Of a stretch of DNA of 64,000 bases, positions 7,853 to 44,685 are shown piece after piece. This DNA is from Acidobacteriota bacterium (GTDB lineage Bacteria; Acidobacteriota; Polarisedimenticolia; Gp22-AA2). Both the position numbers and the translations under genes were made by a program. The notes under the pieces are model-generated. The model was not told the DNA's origin. It searched no databases and saw nothing but the letters and a program-made list of their open reading frames with translations. How positions within the stretch are numbered: the stretch's first letter is position 1; each line of letters begins with the position of its first letter. The stretch spans positions 32,343-96,342 of the forward strand of contig JBHIBC010000001.1 in the NCBI GenBank assembly GCA_046758905.1, given 5' to 3'.

Positions 7853-7881
7853 TTGACAGCGCGCGGGGTTTCGATTAGCTT
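7853..7881 (+). promoter_or_regulatory. sigma70-like promoter TTGACA-N17-TAGCTT upstream of the CheW-like operon; start codon about 13 nt after the -10 (short or leaderless 5' UTR)
   Basis: A perfect -35 hexamer is present. The -10 is weak but retains the T1, A2 and T6 positions. The spacing places the transcription start (TSS) within a few nt of the ATG at 7894. Confidence 0.4.
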
Positions 7882-7893
7882 CAGCCCGGCGCG

Positions 7894-8286
7894 ATGAACC
7901 TCCTCCTCGTGAGCGTCGGGCGCAGGCAGTACGCCGTGGCCGCCGATGCGGTGGAGCGGATCGTCGATCCGGCGCTCGAGCCCGAGTTCCACAGGGAGCC
8001 GCAGGCCCGAGAGGCGACCCACCGCGGAGAGCGCTATCCGGTGGTGGATCTTCACGACATGTCGGGCGAGCGGCGGGGCGATCGCTGCGTGTACCTGTTT
8101 CTCGCCGCCGGCGGCCGCCGCGCCGTCGTCCCGGTCGACGGCGCCGAGGCGATCCGGGACGTGCCGGCGGCCGCGATCGCGCCCCTGCCCTCGTACATCT
8201 TCACCTGCGACCGGCGCCCCTTCAGAGGGATCTTCTCCGACGGCCGGAGGGCCAGGCTCCTTCTGGACGAGGGCGCCCTGCCGTGA
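7894..8286 (+). CDS. CheW-like domain protein
   Basis: The whole 130-aa protein matches the CheW-like domain pattern: RRQYAVAADAVERIV, YPVVDLHDMSG and RLLLDEGAL blocks. No CheA or MCP gene is nearby. Confidence 0.6.
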   Translation: MNLLLVSVGRRQYAVAADAVERIVDPALEPEFHREPQAREATHRGERYPVVDLHDMSGERRGDRCVYLFLAAGGRRAVVPVDGAEAIRDVPAAAIAPLPSYIFTCDRRPFRGIFSDGRRARLLLDEGALP

Positions 8287-8792
8287 AGGCGGAGCGGCGA
8301 TCGCGGTTCTTGGCCCTGCGGGTGGGCGGGGCGGTGGCCGCGTTACCGCTCCACCTGGTGCGGGAGGTGGTCGCATCCTCGGAGGTCGTCCCCGTGCCGG
8401 GGAGCCTGCCGCACGTGGCGGGGGTGGCCCTGCACCGCGGAGCGGCGCTGCCGGTGTACGATCTCCGACGCTTCGAGCCGGTCTGGCCGGGCGCGGCCCC
8501 GGCGCCGCCGGAGGCGGCGCCGCAGCTCATCGTCTGCGTGCTGGGCGAGGCGCTGGTCGGGCTGCTGGGCGACGGGGTCGACCTGCTGGAGGGCGGCCGG
8601 CGGGCGGAGCCGGGTCGGGAGGACGGGGACACGGATCTGCGGCGGGAGTACCTGATCGGCCTGGTGATGTCCGGCGACCGCGGGATCGCCCTGCTCGACG
8701 CGGCCAGGCTCTTCACATCAATGGGCGTGCCGGTCGACGGCGGCCGCGGCGCCAGGGAGGGAGACGGTGAAGAAGATCCTGCTGGCCGATGA
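8283..8792 (+). CDS. CheW-like domain protein (second copy)
   Basis: The CheW-like blocks FLALRVGGAVAALPLHLVREVV, LPVYDLRRF and GIALLDAARLF are present. It overlaps the upstream gene by 4 nt. Confidence 0.55.
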   Translation: MKAERRSRFLALRVGGAVAALPLHLVREVVASSEVVPVPGSLPHVAGVALHRGAALPVYDLRRFEPVWPGAAPAPPEAAPQLIVCVLGEALVGLLGDGVDLLEGGRRAEPGREDGDTDLRREYLIGLVMSGDRGIALLDAARLFTSMGVPVDGGRGAREGDGEEDPAGR

Positions 8793-9978
8793 CAGCATCA
8801 CCATCCAGAAGGTGGTCGAGCTGACCTTCTCGGAGGGCGATTACCAGGTGATCTGTGTCAGCAACGGTGCGCAGGCCCTCAAGAGGATCGTCGAGGCGCG
8901 CCCCGACATCGCCCTTCTCGACGTGATCATGCCGGAGGTGAACGGTTACGAGGTCTGCGAGCAGATCAAGCGCGACCCCTCGACCGCATCGATCCCGGTG
9001 CTGCTGCTCACCGGGACGTTCGAGCCGTTCGACCAGAAGCGAGCGGACGCGGCGGGGGCCTCGGGGCACCTGACCAAGCCGTTCGAGTCCCAGACGCTGG
9101 TCACCAAGGTCGAGGAGCTGATCGCGGCGACCCCGAGGGTCGCGGCCGCCGACGCCGCGGGCATGGATGTGATCGCGGCGGGGGAGGTGTACCACGTCGA
9201 CGCCGCGACGCAGGGCGACGTGGGACCGGCGGCGCCCGCGCCGGCCGGCGCGGAGCAGGGCGGCGCGGTGGATGATGCGGGCCGGGGGTTGGCAGAGCCG
9301 CCCCCGCCCGGACCGGCCGTCCCGCCCCCGCCCGCCCCGGTGGGGCCGGCGGAGACGGCCCCGGAGGGGCCCGTCCCCCACCCCTCCCTCGAGGTCCCCG
9401 ACCCCGGGGCGGGCGGATCGTACCTCGGCTTCGCCGATGTCGGGCTCGGGTCCGAGGACGCCCCGGAGATCGTGCCGGACCGCTTCGACGAGGGCGCTCC
9501 GGCGGACGGGTCCACCCAGAGGATCGACCGGGCGGCGCTGGCGCAGGAGCTCGGGCCGCCGTCCGAGCCGCCGCCCGCCGAAGGGGCGGCGCGCTTCTCG
9601 GGCGAGGAGGTGGACGGGCTGACCGGCGGCTTCGAGGTCCAGGAGCCGTCGGACGCTGCGGGGGGGCCGCGCTCTCCGGGAGAGGTCGAGGCGGAGGCGG
9701 CCTGGACGCCGCCGCCCGAGGCCCCGCCCGCCGAGACGTGGCAGGAGGCGGAGGCGATGCCTCCCGAGCCGCCCCCGGCGGAGCGCGGCCCGCGCTCGCC
9801 GGGCGACGGGGCGCCCGCCGGCCTGACGCCCGAGGCGATCGAGCTGATCGCCGAGCGGGTCGTGCAGAGGATGTCGGACAGGATCGTGCGCGAGATCGCC
9901 TGGGAGGTGATCCCGCAGGTGGCGGAGACCCTCGTCCGGCGGCGCATCAGGGAACTGGAAGAGAACGAGGGGAGCTGA
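8767..9978 (+). CDS. response regulator with N-terminal CheY-like receiver, ~230-aa Pro/Ala/Glu-rich linker and conserved C-terminal helical segment (RomR-like architecture)
   Basis: The receiver motifs are MKKILLADDS, the phospho-Asp context DVIMPEVNGYE and LTKPF. A long low-complexity linker follows. The C-terminus is LTPEAIELIAERVVQRMSDRIVREIAWEVIPQVAETLVRRRIRELEE. A strong SD (GGGAGGGAG) precedes the GTG start. Confidence 0.7.
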   Translation: MKKILLADDSITIQKVVELTFSEGDYQVICVSNGAQALKRIVEARPDIALLDVIMPEVNGYEVCEQIKRDPSTASIPVLLLTGTFEPFDQKRADAAGASGHLTKPFESQTLVTKVEELIAATPRVAAADAAGMDVIAAGEVYHVDAATQGDVGPAAPAPAGAEQGGAVDDAGRGLAEPPPPGPAVPPPPAPVGPAETAPEGPVPHPSLEVPDPGAGGSYLGFADVGLGSEDAPEIVPDRFDEGAPADGSTQRIDRAALAQELGPPSEPPPAEGAARFSGEEVDGLTGGFEVQEPSDAAGGPRSPGEVEAEAAWTPPPEAPPAETWQEAEAMPPEPPPAERGPRSPGDGAPAGLTPEAIELIAERVVQRMSDRIVREIAWEVIPQVAETLVRRRIRELEENEGS

Positions 9979-10020
9979 GCCGACAGGCCGGACGAGCACG
10001 CCCCGGACCGCTCCGGGGAG

Positions 10021-10049
10021 AGTAGGTCCCGAACCTACTTTTTTTGTTG
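10021..10049 (+). terminator. rho-independent terminator (AGTAGGT-CCCGA-ACCTACT followed by a T8 run)
   Basis: It is a perfect 7-bp stem plus a U-tract about 45 nt after the response-regulator stop. A U-tract is rare in this GC-rich DNA. Confidence 0.65.
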
Positions 10050-10104
10050 CCCGGACGCGCGGCCCGTCCGGCCCCGTCGGGGGCTTCGGGTCCGGGCCGG
10101 CGAG

Positions 10105-12759
<2,655 letters not shown>

Positions 12760-21418: not shown

Positions 21419-22354
21419 ATGGTCCTGTTCAACTATTCGACCCGCGAGCTCACCGCCAAGATCGTCTATTACGGGCCGGGGCTCTGCGGCAAGACGACCA
21501 ATCTCCAGTACATCTACGATTCCCTCCCGGACACGGTCAAGAAGGGCAAGATGCTCTCGCTCGCGACCAAGGCGGACCGCACCCTGTTCTTCGATTTCCT
21601 CCCGATCGACCTCGGCACCATCCGCGGCATGAAGACGCGCGTGCAGCTGTACACGGTCCCCGGCCAGGTGTTCTACAACTCCACCCGCAAGCTGGTCCTC
21701 AAGGGCGCGGACGGCATCGTGTTCGTGGCCGACTCGCAGTCCAAGATGCTGGAGGCGAACGGCGAGAGCTACAAGAACCTGGAGGACAACCTGCGGGAGA
21801 TGGGGCTCAAGCTCGACGAGATCCCGCTGGTCATGCAGTTCAACAAGCGGGATCTGCCGAACCTCTCCTCGATCGAGGAGATGAACACGCGGATCAACCG
21901 GCACAACGCCCCTTTCTACGAGGCGGTCGCGACCACCGGGATCGGAGTGGAGGACACGCTCAAGGCGATCACCAAGCTGGTGCTCAATAACCTGGCCGCC
22001 AAGTACAGGCTGGAGGGGGTGGCCCCGGCTGCGGAGGCCGCCCGCAGGGCCGTCCGCGCCCGGCGCCGGCTCCCCCTGCCGGCAGGCCGGAGGCGGCGCC
22101 GAGCCCCGCCGCTGGACCGCCGCCGGCGCCGGCCGCGGAAGCGGCGCAGGAGGACATCGCGCTCGACGCGCTGGAGATCGGAGCGTCGGCCGAGCCCGCC
22201 CGCCCGCCGGCCGCCGCGCCGCCCGCGGCGGCTGCCTCGCCCGGGCCGGTGCCGCTCGCGGCGGCGGCGGGGCCCGGGGAGGCGAGTCTGGCCCTCGGGG
22301 AGGAGATCGCGCGGGAGGGGTTGGACGAGGCTCCCGAGGGCACCGTGGACCTAG
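21419..22354 (+). CDS. mglA: MglA-like Ras-family small GTPase (GTPase domain = first ~196 aa; remainder of ORF is frame-suspect)
   Basis: Over ~196 aa it matches Myxococcus MglA: YYGPGLCGKTTNLQYIY, TLFFDFLP, LYTVPGQVFY and QFNKRDLP. The last ~110 codons are poly-Arg/Pro, typical of a wrong frame in GC-rich DNA. Confidence 0.8.
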   Translation: MVLFNYSTRELTAKIVYYGPGLCGKTTNLQYIYDSLPDTVKKGKMLSLATKADRTLFFDFLPIDLGTIRGMKTRVQLYTVPGQVFYNSTRKLVLKGADGIVFVADSQSKMLEANGESYKNLEDNLREMGLKLDEIPLVMQFNKRDLPNLSSIEEMNTRINRHNAPFYEAVATTGIGVEDTLKAITKLVLNNLAAKYRLEGVAPAAEAARRAVRARRRLPLPAGRRRRRAPPLDRRRRRPRKRRRRTSRSTRWRSERRPSPPARRPPRRPRRLPRPGRCRSRRRRGPGRRVWPSGRRSRGRGWTRLPRAPWT

Positions 22355-22713
22355 GAGAGGACCTCCTCCAGGAGCTGGAGGAGGAGCCGGTCGCCGCGGG
22401 CATGCAGGCCGGGCCTCGGCCCCCCGGCCCGGCCGCCGCGCCCGCGCCGGGGGACGCGCCCGGCCCGCGCGCCGTGCGCCGTCCCGCGCCCGTCGAGGAG
22501 CAGCCGATCGACCTCGATGAGCCGATCGACCTCGACGGGGACGGGTGGGACGCCGCGTCTCCCGCGGCGGGGGAGCCACGGGAGCCCGCCGTGATCGACA
22601 TCGGGCCCGTCTCCCCCGGCCGGGACGGCGTGATCGAGGTCCCCGTGAGCGCCACGGTGGAAGGCCGCCCCGTCCGCCTCACGCTGCGCGTGAGCGTCCG
22701 CGTCGCCCGGTGA
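22249..22713 (+). CDS. hypothetical acidic Pro/Ala-rich protein with structured C-terminal ~40 aa; possibly the true 3' continuation of mglA after a frameshift
   Basis: Its frame is open from 21991 and reads as plausible protein (EAAQEDIALDALEIGASAEP...IDIGPVSPGRDGVIEVPVSATVEGRPVRLTLRV). The overlapping mglA frame is junk-like over the same stretch. Confidence 0.35.
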   Translation: MPLAAAAGPGEASLALGEEIAREGLDEAPEGTVDLGEDLLQELEEEPVAAGMQAGPRPPGPAAAPAPGDAPGPRAVRRPAPVEEQPIDLDEPIDLDGDGWDAASPAAGEPREPAVIDIGPVSPGRDGVIEVPVSATVEGRPVRLTLRVSVRVAR

Positions 22714-23606: not shown

Positions 23607-24731
23607 ATGAAATGCCCGTCCGTCACCGTCGCCCTCGGGGCCGCGCTCTGCCTGGCCTCGCCGCCGGCGCTGTCGCAGTCGCCGATCCGGTTCAGCTCGT
23701 ACTCGTCCTACAGCGCCAAGTTCGACCTCGCTTCCAAGAAGTTCTCCCTGATCACCAGCGTGGTGGTCTACAACATCAGCGGACAGACGTTCAGCGACGT
23801 CCGTTTCAAGCAGACCTATCCCGAGGGCGTCACCGTCAAGGAGACGTACCAGCGCGACGTGGGCACCGAGGCGACCGGAGAGCAGCGCTCGGAGAGGCGG
23901 GTGGAGGACAACGTCTTCTACGCGAGCCTCGACAAGTTCCGCAACCGTCAGTACGTCGTGATCTTCAACGAGCTGGAGCTGGCGCGCCGGCTGGACGAGA
24001 TCACCTTCCCGGGGATCGAGATCAGCTACCTCGACGGGCAGGGGGAGCGCCGCATCGAGCAGCTCGCCGACAACACCTACGACCTGTTCATCTACTCGAA
24101 CGTGGTCGGGGGGCTGACGCGGTTCCTCAAGAAGTACAACCGGATCACGTTCGATTTCACCAAGGCCGTGCCGGACCGGACGGAGTGGGAGTTCGCCCCG
24201 ATCGTGGCGAGCGCGCGCGGGCGCTTCCCGACCGGGATCATCGGCACCTTTCCCGGTGAGGACCGCTACAACGGCTACTTCCGCATCCGCAGCGGGCCTC
24301 CCGGCGACAACGTCCAGATCCTGGTCGTCTACCGCGACGAGGACGGCAAGACCAAGATCTCGGACAGCGAGCGGCTGCTGTCCGAGGTGCGCGACTACCT
24401 CAAGTGGTGCGGCGAGTTCGAGACCGTCGAGGAGGGGCTGAAGGTCTCGAGAGGCAAGTGGAAGAAATACAAGGACGCCTGGTCGATCGAGGGACGCTGG
24501 CGCGACACGATCAAGGATCGTCTCGGCGAGGGCGTCCTGAAGGCGAAGGTGTTCCACGGCCCGCGCGAGGACGTGGAGTACATCGTGCTGGCGCTGGCGC
24601 ACGGCCGCGGCCTGGGCCCGGAGTCGAGCGCCACGCCCAATCCCGGGAAGGAGGCGGAGCTCTCGGCCGAGCTCGACGCGCTCCTCGAGACCTTCAGGTC
24701 GTACATCGTGCGGCTGTCTCACGAACGCTGA
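23607..24731 (+). CDS. secreted protein of unknown function (signal peptide, Lys/Tyr/Phe-rich)
   Basis: The N-terminal signal peptide is MKCPSVTVALGAALCLASPPALSQ. No recognisable domain was found. It has its own promoter and SD. Confidence 0.5.
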   Translation: MKCPSVTVALGAALCLASPPALSQSPIRFSSYSSYSAKFDLASKKFSLITSVVVYNISGQTFSDVRFKQTYPEGVTVKETYQRDVGTEATGEQRSERRVEDNVFYASLDKFRNRQYVVIFNELELARRLDEITFPGIEISYLDGQGERRIEQLADNTYDLFIYSNVVGGLTRFLKKYNRITFDFTKAVPDRTEWEFAPIVASARGRFPTGIIGTFPGEDRYNGYFRIRSGPPGDNVQILVVYRDEDGKTKISDSERLLSEVRDYLKWCGEFETVEEGLKVSRGKWKKYKDAWSIEGRWRDTIKDRLGEGVLKAKVFHGPREDVEYIVLALAHGRGLGPESSATPNPGKEAELSAELDALLETFRSYIVRLSHER

Positions 24732-29515: not shown

Positions 29516-29565
29516 CGCGACCTGCGCGGCGGGCGTAAGTGCATCGAGCGCAAAGGAATAGCCCG

Positions 29566-30432
29566 ATGGCGGCCGACCCCTTCAAGGACCTCACGATACA
29601 CCGCAAGAAGGATGAGACCATATACCGGGAGGGGGACCTCGGGAGCGAGATGTACGTGGTGCAGTCCGGGGCGGTGCGCATCTACCGGGAGTATCGCGGG
29701 ACCATCCAGGAGCTGGCGATCATGGAGAAGGGCGATTTCTTCGGGGAGTTCGCCGTCCTCGAGGGCCTGCCGCGCACCGCGAGCGCCGTGGCGCTGGAGG
29801 AGAGCGACCTCATCGAGATCAACAGCACCACGTTCGACAAGATGATCCGCAGCAACATCGAGATCGCGGTGCGCATGCTCCGCAAGCTGAGCAATCGGCT
29901 GCAGGAGGCCAATCGGAAGATCGAGCTGCTGTCCCGCGCCGCCGCCAGCGGGAAGCCGGTCGCCGAAGCGGTCTCCGCCATCGACACCGACCAGCCGGCC
30001 GAGGCCCCGCCGCCCGCCCCCGAGGCTCCCCCCTCGGAAGGTGTCGAGGCGGAGCCCCGGCCGATCGCGGATGTGGACGTGCCCGAGGGGGCGCTGGCCC
30101 TGCTGGTGCTCGAGGGGGGAGAGCGGCATTTCCCGATCACCGGGGAGACGGCGCTCATCGGGCGCTACGATCCGGTCACCGGGACCCGGCCGGAGATCGA
30201 TCTGACCCAGGTCGATATCAACCGGTCGGTGTCGAGGCGTCACGCACGGATCGTGAGTCAGGACGGGCAGTTCCGGATCTCGGAGGAGGTGGGGGCGCTG
30301 AACGGCACCTTCGTCAACGGGCAGCGCCTGACGGCCGGCGAGCCGGTCCCCGTCAAGAGCGGCGATACCGTGGCGCTGGGGATGGTCTCCTTCGTGTTCA
30401 AGACGGCCGGGGGCGGCAAGGCGGCGCGATGA
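29566..30432 (+). CDS. signalling protein: N-terminal cyclic-nucleotide-binding (Crp-like) domain fused to C-terminal FHA domain
   Basis: The cNMP-binding beta-roll block GDFFGEFAVLEG....RTASAVA is present. The FHA block is TALIGRYDPVTGTRPEIDLTQVDINRSVSRRHARIV...NGTFVNGQRL. Confidence 0.7.
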   Translation: MAADPFKDLTIHRKKDETIYREGDLGSEMYVVQSGAVRIYREYRGTIQELAIMEKGDFFGEFAVLEGLPRTASAVALEESDLIEINSTTFDKMIRSNIEIAVRMLRKLSNRLQEANRKIELLSRAAASGKPVAEAVSAIDTDQPAEAPPPAPEAPPSEGVEAEPRPIADVDVPEGALALLVLEGGERHFPITGETALIGRYDPVTGTRPEIDLTQVDINRSVSRRHARIVSQDGQFRISEEVGALNGTFVNGQRLTAGEPVPVKSGDTVALGMVSFVFKTAGGGKAAR

Positions 30433-41930: not shown

Positions 41931-41960
41931 TTGACGCGATCCGGTCGGGCCCCCTAACAT
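41931..41960 (+). promoter_or_regulatory. sigma70-like promoter TTGACG-N18-TAACAT, with the lptFG ATG about 8 nt after the -10 (leaderless-type)
   Basis: The hexamers and spacing were read from the sequence. Confidence 0.4.
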
Positions 41961-41967
41961 CGATGCG

Positions 41968-44685
41968 ATGAAGCTCCTCGGGGCTCTGCGGCCCGACCGC
42001 CTCTGGAGATACATCTTCGGGGAGATCCTGTCTCCCTCTTTGCTGGGGCTCGGGGTGTACGTGCTCGTCTTCCTCATGAACGCCCTGTTCGAGCTCGCGG
42101 AGCTGGCCATCAAGAAGGACCTGCCGCTCCTTACGGTCGGGCGCATCCTGTTCTACTACCTGCCGAGGGTGCTGGTGCTGACGACCCCGATGGCGATCCT
42201 GCTCGGCGTCCTCGTCGGCATCGGGCGCCTGAGCACGGATAGCGAGATCGTCGCGCTGAGGGCGGCGGGGGTGAGCTACTGGAAGGTCCTCTACCCGGCC
42301 CTGGTGCTCGGCCTGATCGGCTGGGGGTTCGGCAGCTACCTGATGCTGCAGGTGGAGCCCGAGGCCAACTACCGGCGTCGGAGCATCACGACCCGGCTCG
42401 CCTATTCGGCCGACCCGCGGCGCGAGATCAAGCCGCGCGTCTTCTTCGAGGAGATCCCGGGGATACTCCTGTACGCGGACGAGGTCCATCAGGGCGGGGA
42501 TTTCCTCGAGAAGGTCTTCATCCATCAGACGCGCGAGGGGGGCGAGGAGCTGACCACCGTCGCCCGTCGGGTCCAGATCGACTACGACCGCGAGCAGGGA
42601 GTGGCGTTCTTCTACATGGAGTCGGGGCTCAGCCACAGCGTCGATCCGGACGACCCGGAGAGCTACCACGTCAGCCAGTTCGAGCGGCAGATGCTCCGGC
42701 AGGAGCCGGACGAGGCGTTCCGGATCAAGAGCAGCCTGCTGAGCCGTCCCTCCCCTAGGAACTGGCGCGAGCAGAACCTGAGCGAGCTGGCACGCTCGAT
42801 CCTGCGGGCCGGCGCCATCACCCACGAGGAGACGCGCCGGAGGGTGATCGGCACCCTGTTCGCGATCGTTCACGAGAGGTTCGCCCTGCCGGTCGCGTGC
42901 CTCGTCTTCGCGCTGCTCGGCGTCCCGCTCGGGATCATGAACCGGCGCGGCGGCAAGGCCTCCGGATTCAGCCTCAGCATCGCGATCGCCATCCTCTACT
43001 GGATCCTGCTGTCGACCGGCGAGGGGCTGGTCAAGCAGGGCAGGCTGTCCCCCTTCGTGGGCCTGTGGGTCGGGAACGCCCTGCTCGGGGCGCTCGGCGT
43101 CGTGCTCTTCCTCCTGCGGGAGCGCACCGAGAGCCTGCAGATCTCCTTCCTGGTGCCCGCCCGGCTGCAGCGCGCCCTCGCGGCGCTGAGGCGTCGCGAG
43201 GAGGACCAGCTCGACGCCCGCCGGCTCAGGGCGCTCGAGGTCGTGCCGGAGGCGGTGCGGCCCCCGGAGTTCGCGAGGGTCCGGGGGGGGCGGCGCTCCT
43301 CGACCCGGAGGAGCCGGCGGGCGGCGCGGCGCCGTGGTATCCGGGCCGGGGGCGCTCCGAGCGGGACGCTGTGCCTGGTCCCCTCCGTCGATCCGGAGGC
43401 CGGCGGGAGCGGCGGGTCCGATGATCTGGCGCCCGTCGAGCCGGGGGCGGTCGGCCGGTCCCGGACGATACGGGTCGGGCTGCTCGCCGGAATCGCGGTG
43501 CTGGCGGGCCTCGCGTCCATCTCCTTCAGTCCGTTCCTGCTGGTCGCGATCACGCTCCTGGCTCTCTTCCTGGTCTTCAGCACCACAATGGACCGCTACG
43601 TCCTGGCCCGGTACGGGACCGTGCTCGCCGGATGCCTCGCGTCGCTGTTCACGCTCGTGGCTGTCTACGAGTTCATCCAGATCATGGACGAGCTGGTGGA
43701 GCGCAGCCTGCCGGTCGGCCTGGCGCTGAGCTATCTCAAGTACCGCAGCCCGTGGATCCTGGCGCAGATCCTGCCGATGTCGTCGCTGGTGGCGACCTTC
43801 ATGACGTTCGGGGCGATGTCGCGGCTCAACGAGGTCGTGGCGCTCAAGGCGAGCGGGACGAGCATCTATCGCCTCTCGATGCCGGTCGTGGTCGTGGCCG
43901 TCGCGCTGAGCACCCTGGCCTACGTCAACTACGACTACCTGATGCCGCACGCGAACCGGAAGGCGCGGCAGGTCAAGGACGTGATCAAGGGGAAGACGCC
44001 CCGGACCTACCGGGTTCAGAAGGAACGGTGGGTGTTCGGCGAGCAGGGCCGGCTTTACAACTTCGCCACCTACACGCCGCCCCACTTCCCGGTCCTGCCG
44101 GCCGCCGGCCGGAGCGGCACCTTCCAGGGGTTCAGCGCCTACCGCCTCGACCCCGAGACGTTCCAGATCCGGCGCCGGGTTCACGCCAGGAACGCGGTCT
44201 ACGACACGGATCACTGGGTCCTCCGCGACGGGTGGATCCGCGAGTTCCGGGACGGGCGGGAGTCGTTCGAGGCGTTCGCCGAGAAGCGATTCGACTTCCC
44301 CGAACGGCCGGCCTACTTCGTGGGTGAGTGGAAGAGCCCCCAGCAGATGACCTTCGCCGAGCTCAAGGGCTTCGTCCGCGACCTCGACCGCCGGGGGTAC
44401 GACGTCCAGGAGCTGGCCGTCGATCTGTACGACAAGTCGGCCATACCGCTGGTGTCGCTGACGATGGTGGTGCTCGGGCTCCCCTTCTGCTTCCGGATGG
44501 GACGCCGCGGCTCGCTGTACGGGATCGGCGTCGCCATCGTGCTGGCGCTGCTCTTCCTCGTGACTTTCTCCGCCACCAATGCGCTCGGCGGCGTCGGGCT
44601 CGTCCCCCCGTTCCTCGCGGCGTGGGCCCCGAACATCCTGTTCGCGGGGAGCGGCGTCTACCTACTCCTGCGGACCTCGACCTGA
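41968..44685 (+). CDS. fused LptF-LptG LPS export permease (two YjgP/YjgQ modules in one 905-aa ORF)
   Basis: The N-terminal module has the LptF/G pattern (YIFGEILSP...). A second module begins at an internal MDRYVLARYG (ATG ~43588). The two are joined by a ~150-aa Arg/Gly-rich linker with no stop. The alternative frames are junk. Confidence 0.65.
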   Translation: MKLLGALRPDRLWRYIFGEILSPSLLGLGVYVLVFLMNALFELAELAIKKDLPLLTVGRILFYYLPRVLVLTTPMAILLGVLVGIGRLSTDSEIVALRAAGVSYWKVLYPALVLGLIGWGFGSYLMLQVEPEANYRRRSITTRLAYSADPRREIKPRVFFEEIPGILLYADEVHQGGDFLEKVFIHQTREGGEELTTVARRVQIDYDREQGVAFFYMESGLSHSVDPDDPESYHVSQFERQMLRQEPDEAFRIKSSLLSRPSPRNWREQNLSELARSILRAGAITHEETRRRVIGTLFAIVHERFALPVACLVFALLGVPLGIMNRRGGKASGFSLSIAIAILYWILLSTGEGLVKQGRLSPFVGLWVGNALLGALGVVLFLLRERTESLQISFLVPARLQRALAALRRREEDQLDARRLRALEVVPEAVRPPEFARVRGGRRSSTRRSRRAARRRGIRAGGAPSGTLCLVPSVDPEAGGSGGSDDLAPVEPGAVGRSRTIRVGLLAGIAVLAGLASISFSPFLLVAITLLALFLVFSTTMDRYVLARYGTVLAGCLASLFTLVAVYEFIQIMDELVERSLPVGLALSYLKYRSPWILAQILPMSSLVATFMTFGAMSRLNEVVALKASGTSIYRLSMPVVVVAVALSTLAYVNYDYLMPHANRKARQVKDVIKGKTPRTYRVQKERWVFGEQGRLYNFATYTPPHFPVLPAAGRSGTFQGFSAYRLDPETFQIRRRVHARNAVYDTDHWVLRDGWIREFRDGRESFEAFAEKRFDFPERPAYFVGEWKSPQQMTFAELKGFVRDLDRRGYDVQELAVDLYDKSAIPLVSLTMVVLGLPFCFRMGRRGSLYGIGVAIVLALLFLVTFSATNALGGVGLVPPFLAAWAPNILFAGSGVYLLLRTST

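Follow-up and report, generated by a model that had tools for sequence, protein, structure and literature searches.

Two short genes for CheW-like proteins, CheW1 and CheW2, stand directly upstream of a gene for a response regulator in a 64-kb stretch of DNA from an Acidobacteriota bacterium (contig JBHIBC010000001.1; the whole stretch is called the window below). What is this regulator, and what are two chemotaxis adaptors doing beside it? A reading made from the sequence alone had proposed a regulator of the RomR type, known as a polarity protein of Myxococcus, and had taken its coupling to CheW-like proteins to be undescribed. We find that the locus is the Acidobacteriota (Polarisedimenticolia-like) version of the M. 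xanthus romR locus, with the CheW protein split in two genes. The arrangement has been published, its function has not. The sequence-only reading is therefore partly supported, being right on the gene identities and wrong on the novelty.

The regulator is an orthologue of RomR

The three genes lie on the forward strand: CheW1 at 7894-8286 (130 aa), CheW2 at 8283-8792 (169 aa), and the regulator gene, romR, at 8767-9978 (403 aa). Pfam identifies a single domain in the 403-aa protein, a receiver (Response_reg, 81.2 bits), and NCBIfam adds nothing specific. The receiver domain (residues 1-119, 8767-9123) carries D8, D9, D52, T82, and K104, all of which are invariant in alignments; the phospho-acceptor of M. 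xanthus RomR is D53, as defined by Keilberg et al. (2012). A linker of 231 residues follows (residues 120-350, 9124-9816; A 19%, P 19%, G 14%, E 11%), and the protein ends in a helix-Pro-helix segment (residues 351-403, 9817-9978 including the stop codon). In the AlphaFold2 model the receiver is confident, with a predicted local distance difference test score (pLDDT) of ~90, residues 122-350 are disordered (pLDDT <50), and the C-terminal helices span residues 355-380 and 383-402. The model shows the three-part layout that had been proposed for the regulator.

For comparison with an authentic RomR we relied on the romR cloning primers of Keilberg et al. (2012), which hold the exact 5' and 3' ends of the gene. 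When the sequence of the 5' primer was scanned for exact matches, five Myxococcus-type loci came up, and the reference gene in one of them (L002) begins MPKNLLVADDSLTI and ends KDRETQH, in agreement with the primers. The window receiver is 56% identical to that of Myxococcus RomR over 118 aa (E = 8e-44). The linker is not alignable to the Myxococcus linker. At the C terminus, the last 60 residues align to Myxococcus RomR-C with a local score of 92, compared with 26.9 +/- 5.5 for shuffled sequences, of which 0/5000 reach 92. The core shared by the two proteins reads IAWEV(I/V)PQ(V/L)AET, W379 and P383 are invariant in alignments, and the C-terminal 53 aa are rich in Glu and Arg (Glu 19%). RomR-C has been defined by an invariant Trp and Pro and by enrichment in Glu (Keilberg et al., 2012). 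Residues 371-420 of RomR alone bind MglC with nanomolar affinity, and W394 is critical (Kodesia et al., 2025, PMC12719032); W379 of the window protein is the equivalent of this M. xanthus residue. A PDB search with the RomR-C segment gave no meaningful match and no structural template.

All three regions by which Keilberg et al. (2012) describe RomR, namely the receiver, the unstructured Pro-rich linker, and RomR-C, are thus found in the window protein. A neighbour-joining tree of the receivers (82 loci) follows taxonomy and places it among the Acidobacteriota RomRs. Because receiver identity, RomR-C similarity, the invariant Trp and Pro, and the receiver tree all point the same way, the 403-aa protein is a RomR orthologue, which goes beyond the similarity of architecture noticed at first.

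The linkers of Acidobacteriota RomRs contain short conserved motifs: GGSYxGFADLG (G216 and G217 invariant), VPDRxD (D238, R239), MEGFxxGxE, and WTPPPEAPPxETW. They are absent from Myxococcus RomR and are candidate docking sites. In the receiver tree, the RomR receivers of two loci, one labelled Spirochaetaceae (L047) and one Clostridia (L057), nest in Myxococcota and Blastocatellia clades, and the L047 receiver is nearly identical to that of L050, a metagenome-assembled genome (MAG) from Myxococcota. The L047 and L057 contigs are probably mis-binned.

CheW1 and CheW2 correspond to the two domains of one Myxococcus protein

Both small proteins score well above the cut-off of the Pfam CheW family (PF01584, 23.5 bits), CheW1 with 46.7 bits and CheW2 with 56.7 bits, and so bear out the description of the pair as tandem single-domain CheW-like proteins. 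Against the E. coli CheW equivalog NF007903, which has a cut-off of 260 bits, CheW2 scores 17.8 bits and CheW1 gives no match. The AlphaFold2 model of CheW2 (pLDDT 71.5) has as its best structural match E. coli CheW in the core signalling unit (8c5v_E; E = 4e-7, TM-score 0.70), followed by other CheWs and then by the P5 domain of CheA. The CheW family profile matches E. coli CheW at 2e-10.

Compared pairwise by BLASTP with the fused Myxococcus protein, CheW1 and CheW2 gave weak, colinear matches (E = 0.008 and 0.027), so that position-specific profiles were needed to assign the domains. We made separate profiles from domain 1 and domain 2 of the Myxococcota two-CheW proteins. CheW2 scores 37.3 bits with the domain-2 profile and 5.9 with the domain-1 profile; CheW1 prefers domain 1 by a modest margin (16.8 versus 11.1 bits). 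Judged by these profiles, CheW1 and CheW2 are the split counterpart of the MXAN4462-type protein of Myxococcus, corresponding to its domains 1 and 2, respectively.

The two positions differ in a functionally important residue. In E. coli CheW, R62 pairs with E38 in a conserved salt bridge (Glu38-Arg62), through which the receptor-binding site is coupled to the kinase-binding site. CheW1 retains this canonical Arg, in HRGERYPVVDL, and position-1 domains keep the Arg aligned with R62 in 14 of 16 lineages. In the CheW2 homologues the same column holds Arg in 9/28 and Gly in 16/28, and the position-2 domains of Myxococcus have A, G, or D there. The Glu equivalent to E38 is kept in 27 of the 28.

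Only these 28 relatives of CheW2 were found in a database of 5.8 billion proteins at the sensitivity used. Once the close orthologues are set aside, the CheW2 profile best matches a large set of proteins of 460-700 aa (P0158-P0296) that carry three or four CheW-like domains and owe their scores to the sum over these domains. The role of multi-CheW proteins is not described in the preprint of Vass, Bourret and Foster on multi-domain CheW proteins.

The gene order is that of the Myxococcus xanthus romR locus

In M. xanthus, romR (MXAN4461) lies directly 3' of MXAN4462, annotated as having "two CheW domains", and also adjoins a Val-tRNA synthetase gene (MXAN4460, valS) (Leonardy et al., 2007, PMC2034494, Fig. 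1). The L002 locus shows the same: one strand carries, in order, a gene whose 271-aa product has two CheW stretches, romR, and valS, and a divergent gene for a receiver-GGDEF protein (MXAN4463 in M. xanthus) lies upstream. The window shares with this locus the gene order, the strand, the three-part RomR, and the RomR-C core. It differs in that the two CheW domains reside on separate proteins from overlapping genes instead of on one 271-aa polypeptide, and in that methylmalonyl-CoA mutase and B12-binding subunit genes take the place of the divergent gene. The linkers differ as well: PGMPPGPG repeats characterize that of M. xanthus, whereas the Ala/Pro/Gly/Glu-rich window linker has its own motifs. 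M. xanthus further has the Frz chemosensory system, and none is known in Acidobacteria (Keilberg et al., 2012).

Since the same order of genes was drawn in 2007, the claim that a coupling of CheW-like proteins to RomR had not been described fails. RomR itself was reported in Acidobacteria by Keilberg et al. (2012), and the window protein conforms to the family as described there, with a receiver, a lineage-specific linker, and RomR-C, and with MglA encoded in the same window; it differs in that no MglB was found in the window and in that the Polarisedimenticolia-like lineage lies outside the 2012 genome set. In the literature searched, we found no mention of MXAN4462 beyond Leonardy et al. (2007), no discussion of a CheW partner of RomR and no functional study of the pairing, and no report of the split form or of the pair in Acidobacteriota or Desulfuromonadales.

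Three other systems invite comparison. CheV likewise couples a CheW-like module genetically to a receiver; it does so by fusing one CheW domain to the receiver, whereas the window has two CheW proteins and no fusion, and here the receiver is part of a polarity scaffold that has a long output region. The likeness is an analogy, plausible for the docking of a receiver at a chemosensory array, and not family membership. Among the multi-domain CheW proteins (CheW.II and higher; Vass, Bourret and Foster, 2022/2023), the Myxococcus form resembles those with two CheW domains, which the preprint treats as rare and of unknown role. The window differs in having these domains on separate proteins, and that work does not discuss a link to RomR. 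Finally, RomR of Bdellovibrio bacteriovorus (Bd2761) is an orthologue that also works with MglA, yet it is an orphan regulator in a single-gene operon with no CheW partner, and its phosphorylation appears dispensable.

The CheW pair is an accessory that recurs at the same place in three phyla

How constant is the association? A RomR alignment, run against one genome for each species, yielded 79 loci from several phyla, which we scored with an iterated profile of the CheW subfamily; 76 loci could be evaluated for the pair and 58 for valS. In 11 of the 76, distributed over three phyla, the CheW pair lies directly 5' of romR and on its strand. It is fused in Myxococcus, Corallococcus, Archangium, and Anaeromyxobacter(aceae) and split in two Desulfuromonadales MAGs (L051, L061) and in the closest relative of the window (L010). 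The same placement is seen in L001-L005, L089, and L090, the last two of which have the split form. Within Acidobacteriota the pair is confined to the sub-lineage of the window; five close sister loci (L006-L009, L011) keep the order rpoN, hpf, acyl-CoA dehydrogenase, methylmalonyl-CoA mutase, B12-binding subunit, romR, valS, nadC without the CheW genes.

The overlaps between the window genes, 4 nt (GTGA) for CheW1/CheW2 and 26 nt for CheW2/romR, just as the sequence-only reading had them, suggest that the three are translated together. The same overlapping three-gene arrangement occurs in L010, L089, and L090 and hence is not a chance pattern of open reading frames (ORFs). In the Desulfuromonadales loci the wider neighbourhood is unrelated, so only the CheW-romR block itself is conserved. 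A profile of the subfamily found no copy away from romR in ~1.2 Mb of loci, and no CheA or MCP gene lies in the flanks of the related loci.

Most RomR loci lack the pair, which means that RomR works without it; the pair looks like a dispensable accessory of romR. It occurs in three separate parts of the RomR receiver tree, which leaves two histories: an ancestral pair with repeated losses, or repeated insertions at one and the same site. Two other accounts of this pattern were rejected. A divergent CheW hidden in the negative loci is not supported, as a Pfam scan of 111 ORFs upstream of romR in these loci showed metabolic genes, with CheW not among the 25 most frequent families. Transfer of cheW-romR into Acidobacteriota as a block is rejected for romR, whose receiver tree follows taxonomy.

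On the other side of romR, valS (10105-12759, forward strand, in the window) follows directly in 35 of the 58 evaluable loci, from Acidobacteriota, Myxococcota, Desulfuromonadales/Geobacteraceae, and Nitrospirota, as it does in M. xanthus. In L006 the two genes overlap by 4 nt. Conservation of this romR-valS linkage far exceeds that of the CheW pair, for no obvious functional reason.

An MglA gene lies 11.4 kb downstream

An ORF starting at 21419 on the forward strand matches M. xanthus MglA structures (6hjh and 5ymx) with E = 2e-78 and is a true MglA, as had been suspected of a gene ~11 kb downstream. It follows der, 11.4 kb 3' of the CheW/romR unit. There is no mglB adjacent to it, and no Roadblock/LC7 gene (MglB or MglC) was found among the ORFs of the 64-kb window.

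The small GTPase domain occupies 21419-22012, and the ORF has no stop codon at the usual ~195 aa; the same frame continues to 22354 as an anomalous, Arg-rich tail. Another frame, at 21991-22713, encodes a Pro/Ala/Glu-rich stretch and then a small strand-like terminal segment (...VIDIGPVSPGRDGVIEVPVSATVEGRPVRLTLRVSVRVAR). It has a high third-position GC content, no start codon before 22249, and no Pfam match. The anomaly reflects either a frameshift in the assembly or an MglA with a long C-terminal extension. Four Myxococcota MAGs (L050, L058, L059, L067), which are without the CheW pair, have an MglA-like ORF 4-8 kb 3' of romR on the same strand, within long reading frames.

Possible coupling of RomR to a chemosensory array

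Considering all evidence, we think it probable, with some reserve, that the window contains a romR locus whose split CheW pair is an accessory adaptor to a chemosensory array. By extension from the Myxococcus literature, RomR would reside at the cell poles as a polar scaffold, where RomR-C would bind MglC, and MglC would recruit MglB. In Myxococcus the receiver acts together with RomX to engage MglA-GTP, and the window receiver may do likewise. RomR would set the front-rear polarity by which type IV pilus and gliding motility are directed, probably with the MglA encoded 11.4 kb downstream as its partner.

The least certain steps concern the CheW proteins. CheW1 and CheW2 might form a heterodimer equivalent to the fused protein, and this heterodimer might tie the RomR receiver to an array whose MCP and CheA are encoded elsewhere. 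Such an adaptor would in effect be a CheV with its CheW and receiver parts as separate proteins, and the array could either phosphorylate RomR or hold it in place. The most far-reaching proposal, that the two-CheW unit is the missing input adaptor, which docks the RomR receiver to an array so that a CheA-type kinase phosphorylates or sequesters RomR, is less likely than not; in Myxococcus, the array and kinase would be Frz. Two observations count for an array adaptor. Leonardy et al. (2007, PMC2034494) stated that the kinase that acts on RomR had not been identified. Furthermore, among cultured genera the pair and FrzE co-occur: Myxococcus and Anaeromyxobacter, which bear FrzE, have the pair, and Geobacter is without both (our survey and Keilberg et al., 2012).

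Several observations weigh against an array adaptor. No experiment in the literature searched ties MXAN4462 or the CheW pair to RomR. CheA and MCP are both absent from the 64-kb window, and a 2012 survey found no FrzE in the Acidobacteria genomes of that time (Keilberg et al., 2012). The pair is missing from 65 of the 76 RomR loci, including the close sisters of the window. Neither the 28 close CheW2 homologues nor the 150 best hits of an exhaustive profile search included a protein in which CheW is fused to RomR or to a receiver. Position-2 CheW domains poorly conserve the canonical Arg, which argues against fully canonical coupling to an array. Lastly, RomR may not need phosphorylation at all; in Bdellovibrio it appears dispensable.

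Alternative explanations

Some of these observations would be expected if the pair worked without an array. In this main rival explanation, the CheW fold serves as a binding module for RomR, through the receiver or a linker motif, or for another polarity protein at the pole, and tunes the clustering or turnover of RomR. The lack of CheA and MCP genes in the window, the lack of FrzE in the Acidobacteria surveyed by Keilberg et al. (2012), and the loss of the canonical Arg from most position-2 domains all fit this idea, as does a subfamily that is small and seen only beside romR; the conserved motifs of the Acidobacteriota linkers would offer possible docking sites. It accounts less well for the canonical Arg retained in position-1 domains, for the E38-equivalent Glu retained in CheW2, and for the CheW2 model and profile, which best match canonical array CheWs. 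In cultured genera, moreover, the pair occurs only where Frz is present. We regard a module of this kind as unlikely, while ranking it above adjacency without function.

The adjacency could instead be a historical leftover, with the CheW pair serving a chemosensory system elsewhere and merely sharing a transcript with romR. The tight linkage of romR, in 35/58 loci, to valS, a gene without an obvious functional tie, indicates that this neighbourhood can stay conserved without shared function, and the pair is dispensable in most lineages. Yet the position and strand of the pair are constant in three phyla while the wider context differs, the 4- and 26-nt overlaps of the genes are accompanied by overlaps in several relatives, and the subfamily was never found away from romR in the loci examined. 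A leftover is thus a distinctly poor prospect.

Very little speaks for a previously undescribed kind of module made of orphan CheW adaptors and a RomR-type regulator. The literature searched does lack a functional study of the pairing and any report of the split form or of its occurrence in Acidobacteriota and Desulfuromonadales; however, the arrangement was drawn for the type romR locus (Leonardy et al., 2007), RomR of Acidobacteria was reported in 2012, and the window CheW genes are homologous, domain for domain, to the MXAN4462-type protein, which renders this explanation highly improbable. That the regulator is not RomR but another receiver with a low-complexity tail, FrzS-like or PilG-like, can draw only on the recognition of nothing but the receiver by Pfam and NCBIfam, and is dismissed in view of the 56% receiver identity, the significant RomR-C similarity with its invariant Trp and Pro, and the conserved romR-valS and cheW-romR orders.

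Transcription signals and genomic neighbourhood

When 9985-10052 is folded directly as RNA, two hairpins form ahead of U7 (-28.5 kcal/mol, z = -2.56). These two tandem hairpins and the U tract (10001-10049, forward strand) form a likely intrinsic terminator between romR and valS, in keeping with the terminator read from the sequence at first; a simple consensus scan did not list the site. Upstream of CheW1, the 69-nt gap after the B12-binding gene contains a TTGACA hexamer (7853-7858, forward strand). It is a perfect match as read from the sequence and a possible -35 element on weak evidence; no acceptable -10 hexamer was found for it, and the promoter scan returned 0 promoter-like sites, which leaves the own promoter proposed for the unit at first weakly supported.

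The 64-kb window is a housekeeping region. The three genes are preceded, in order, by lptC/A, lptB, rpoN, hpf, and the genes for acyl-CoA dehydrogenase, methylmalonyl-CoA mutase, and the B12-binding subunit. They are followed by valS, nadC, coaX, comEC, der, mglA, glnA, glnE, scpAB, and rpsA, and then by parAB, lptFG, metK, dnaE, guaA, holA, lptE, and leuS. None of the genes in the window encodes CheA, MCP, CheB, or CheR, as had been stated for the vicinity of the unit. The regulator is 100% identical to an NCBI protein entered as "MAG: Acidobacteriota bacterium", and NCBI labels its relatives Candidatus Polarisedimenticolia.

Three further ORFs were noted. At 41935-44685, a single ORF of 917 aa has two LptF_LptG matches and appears to encode a fusion of LptF with LptG. 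A 374-aa protein with a signal-peptide-like N terminus and no Pfam match is encoded at 23607-24731. Located after glnE, at 29539-30432, is a gene for a protein with cyclic nucleotide monophosphate (cNMP)-binding and FHA domains.

Implications for RomR and for polarity in Acidobacteriota

For the window alone, the result is mainly one of correct annotation: romR, its CheW accessory, and mglA are present in an uncultured Acidobacteriota lineage, and these polarity-module genes, as far as gene content is a guide, would imply regulated surface motility in that lineage. Its wider interest comes from RomR, a scaffold central to the best-studied front-rear polarity switch of bacteria. The presence of a double-CheW gene directly 5' of romR in three phyla, fused or split and in changing surroundings, is comparative evidence that MXAN4462 belongs to the RomR system. 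If the adaptor reading is true, it would answer a question that has stood since 2007, namely what acts on the RomR receiver, and an ancient "CheV made of separate proteins", spread over three phyla, would link chemosensing to polarity governed by a Ras-like GTPase.

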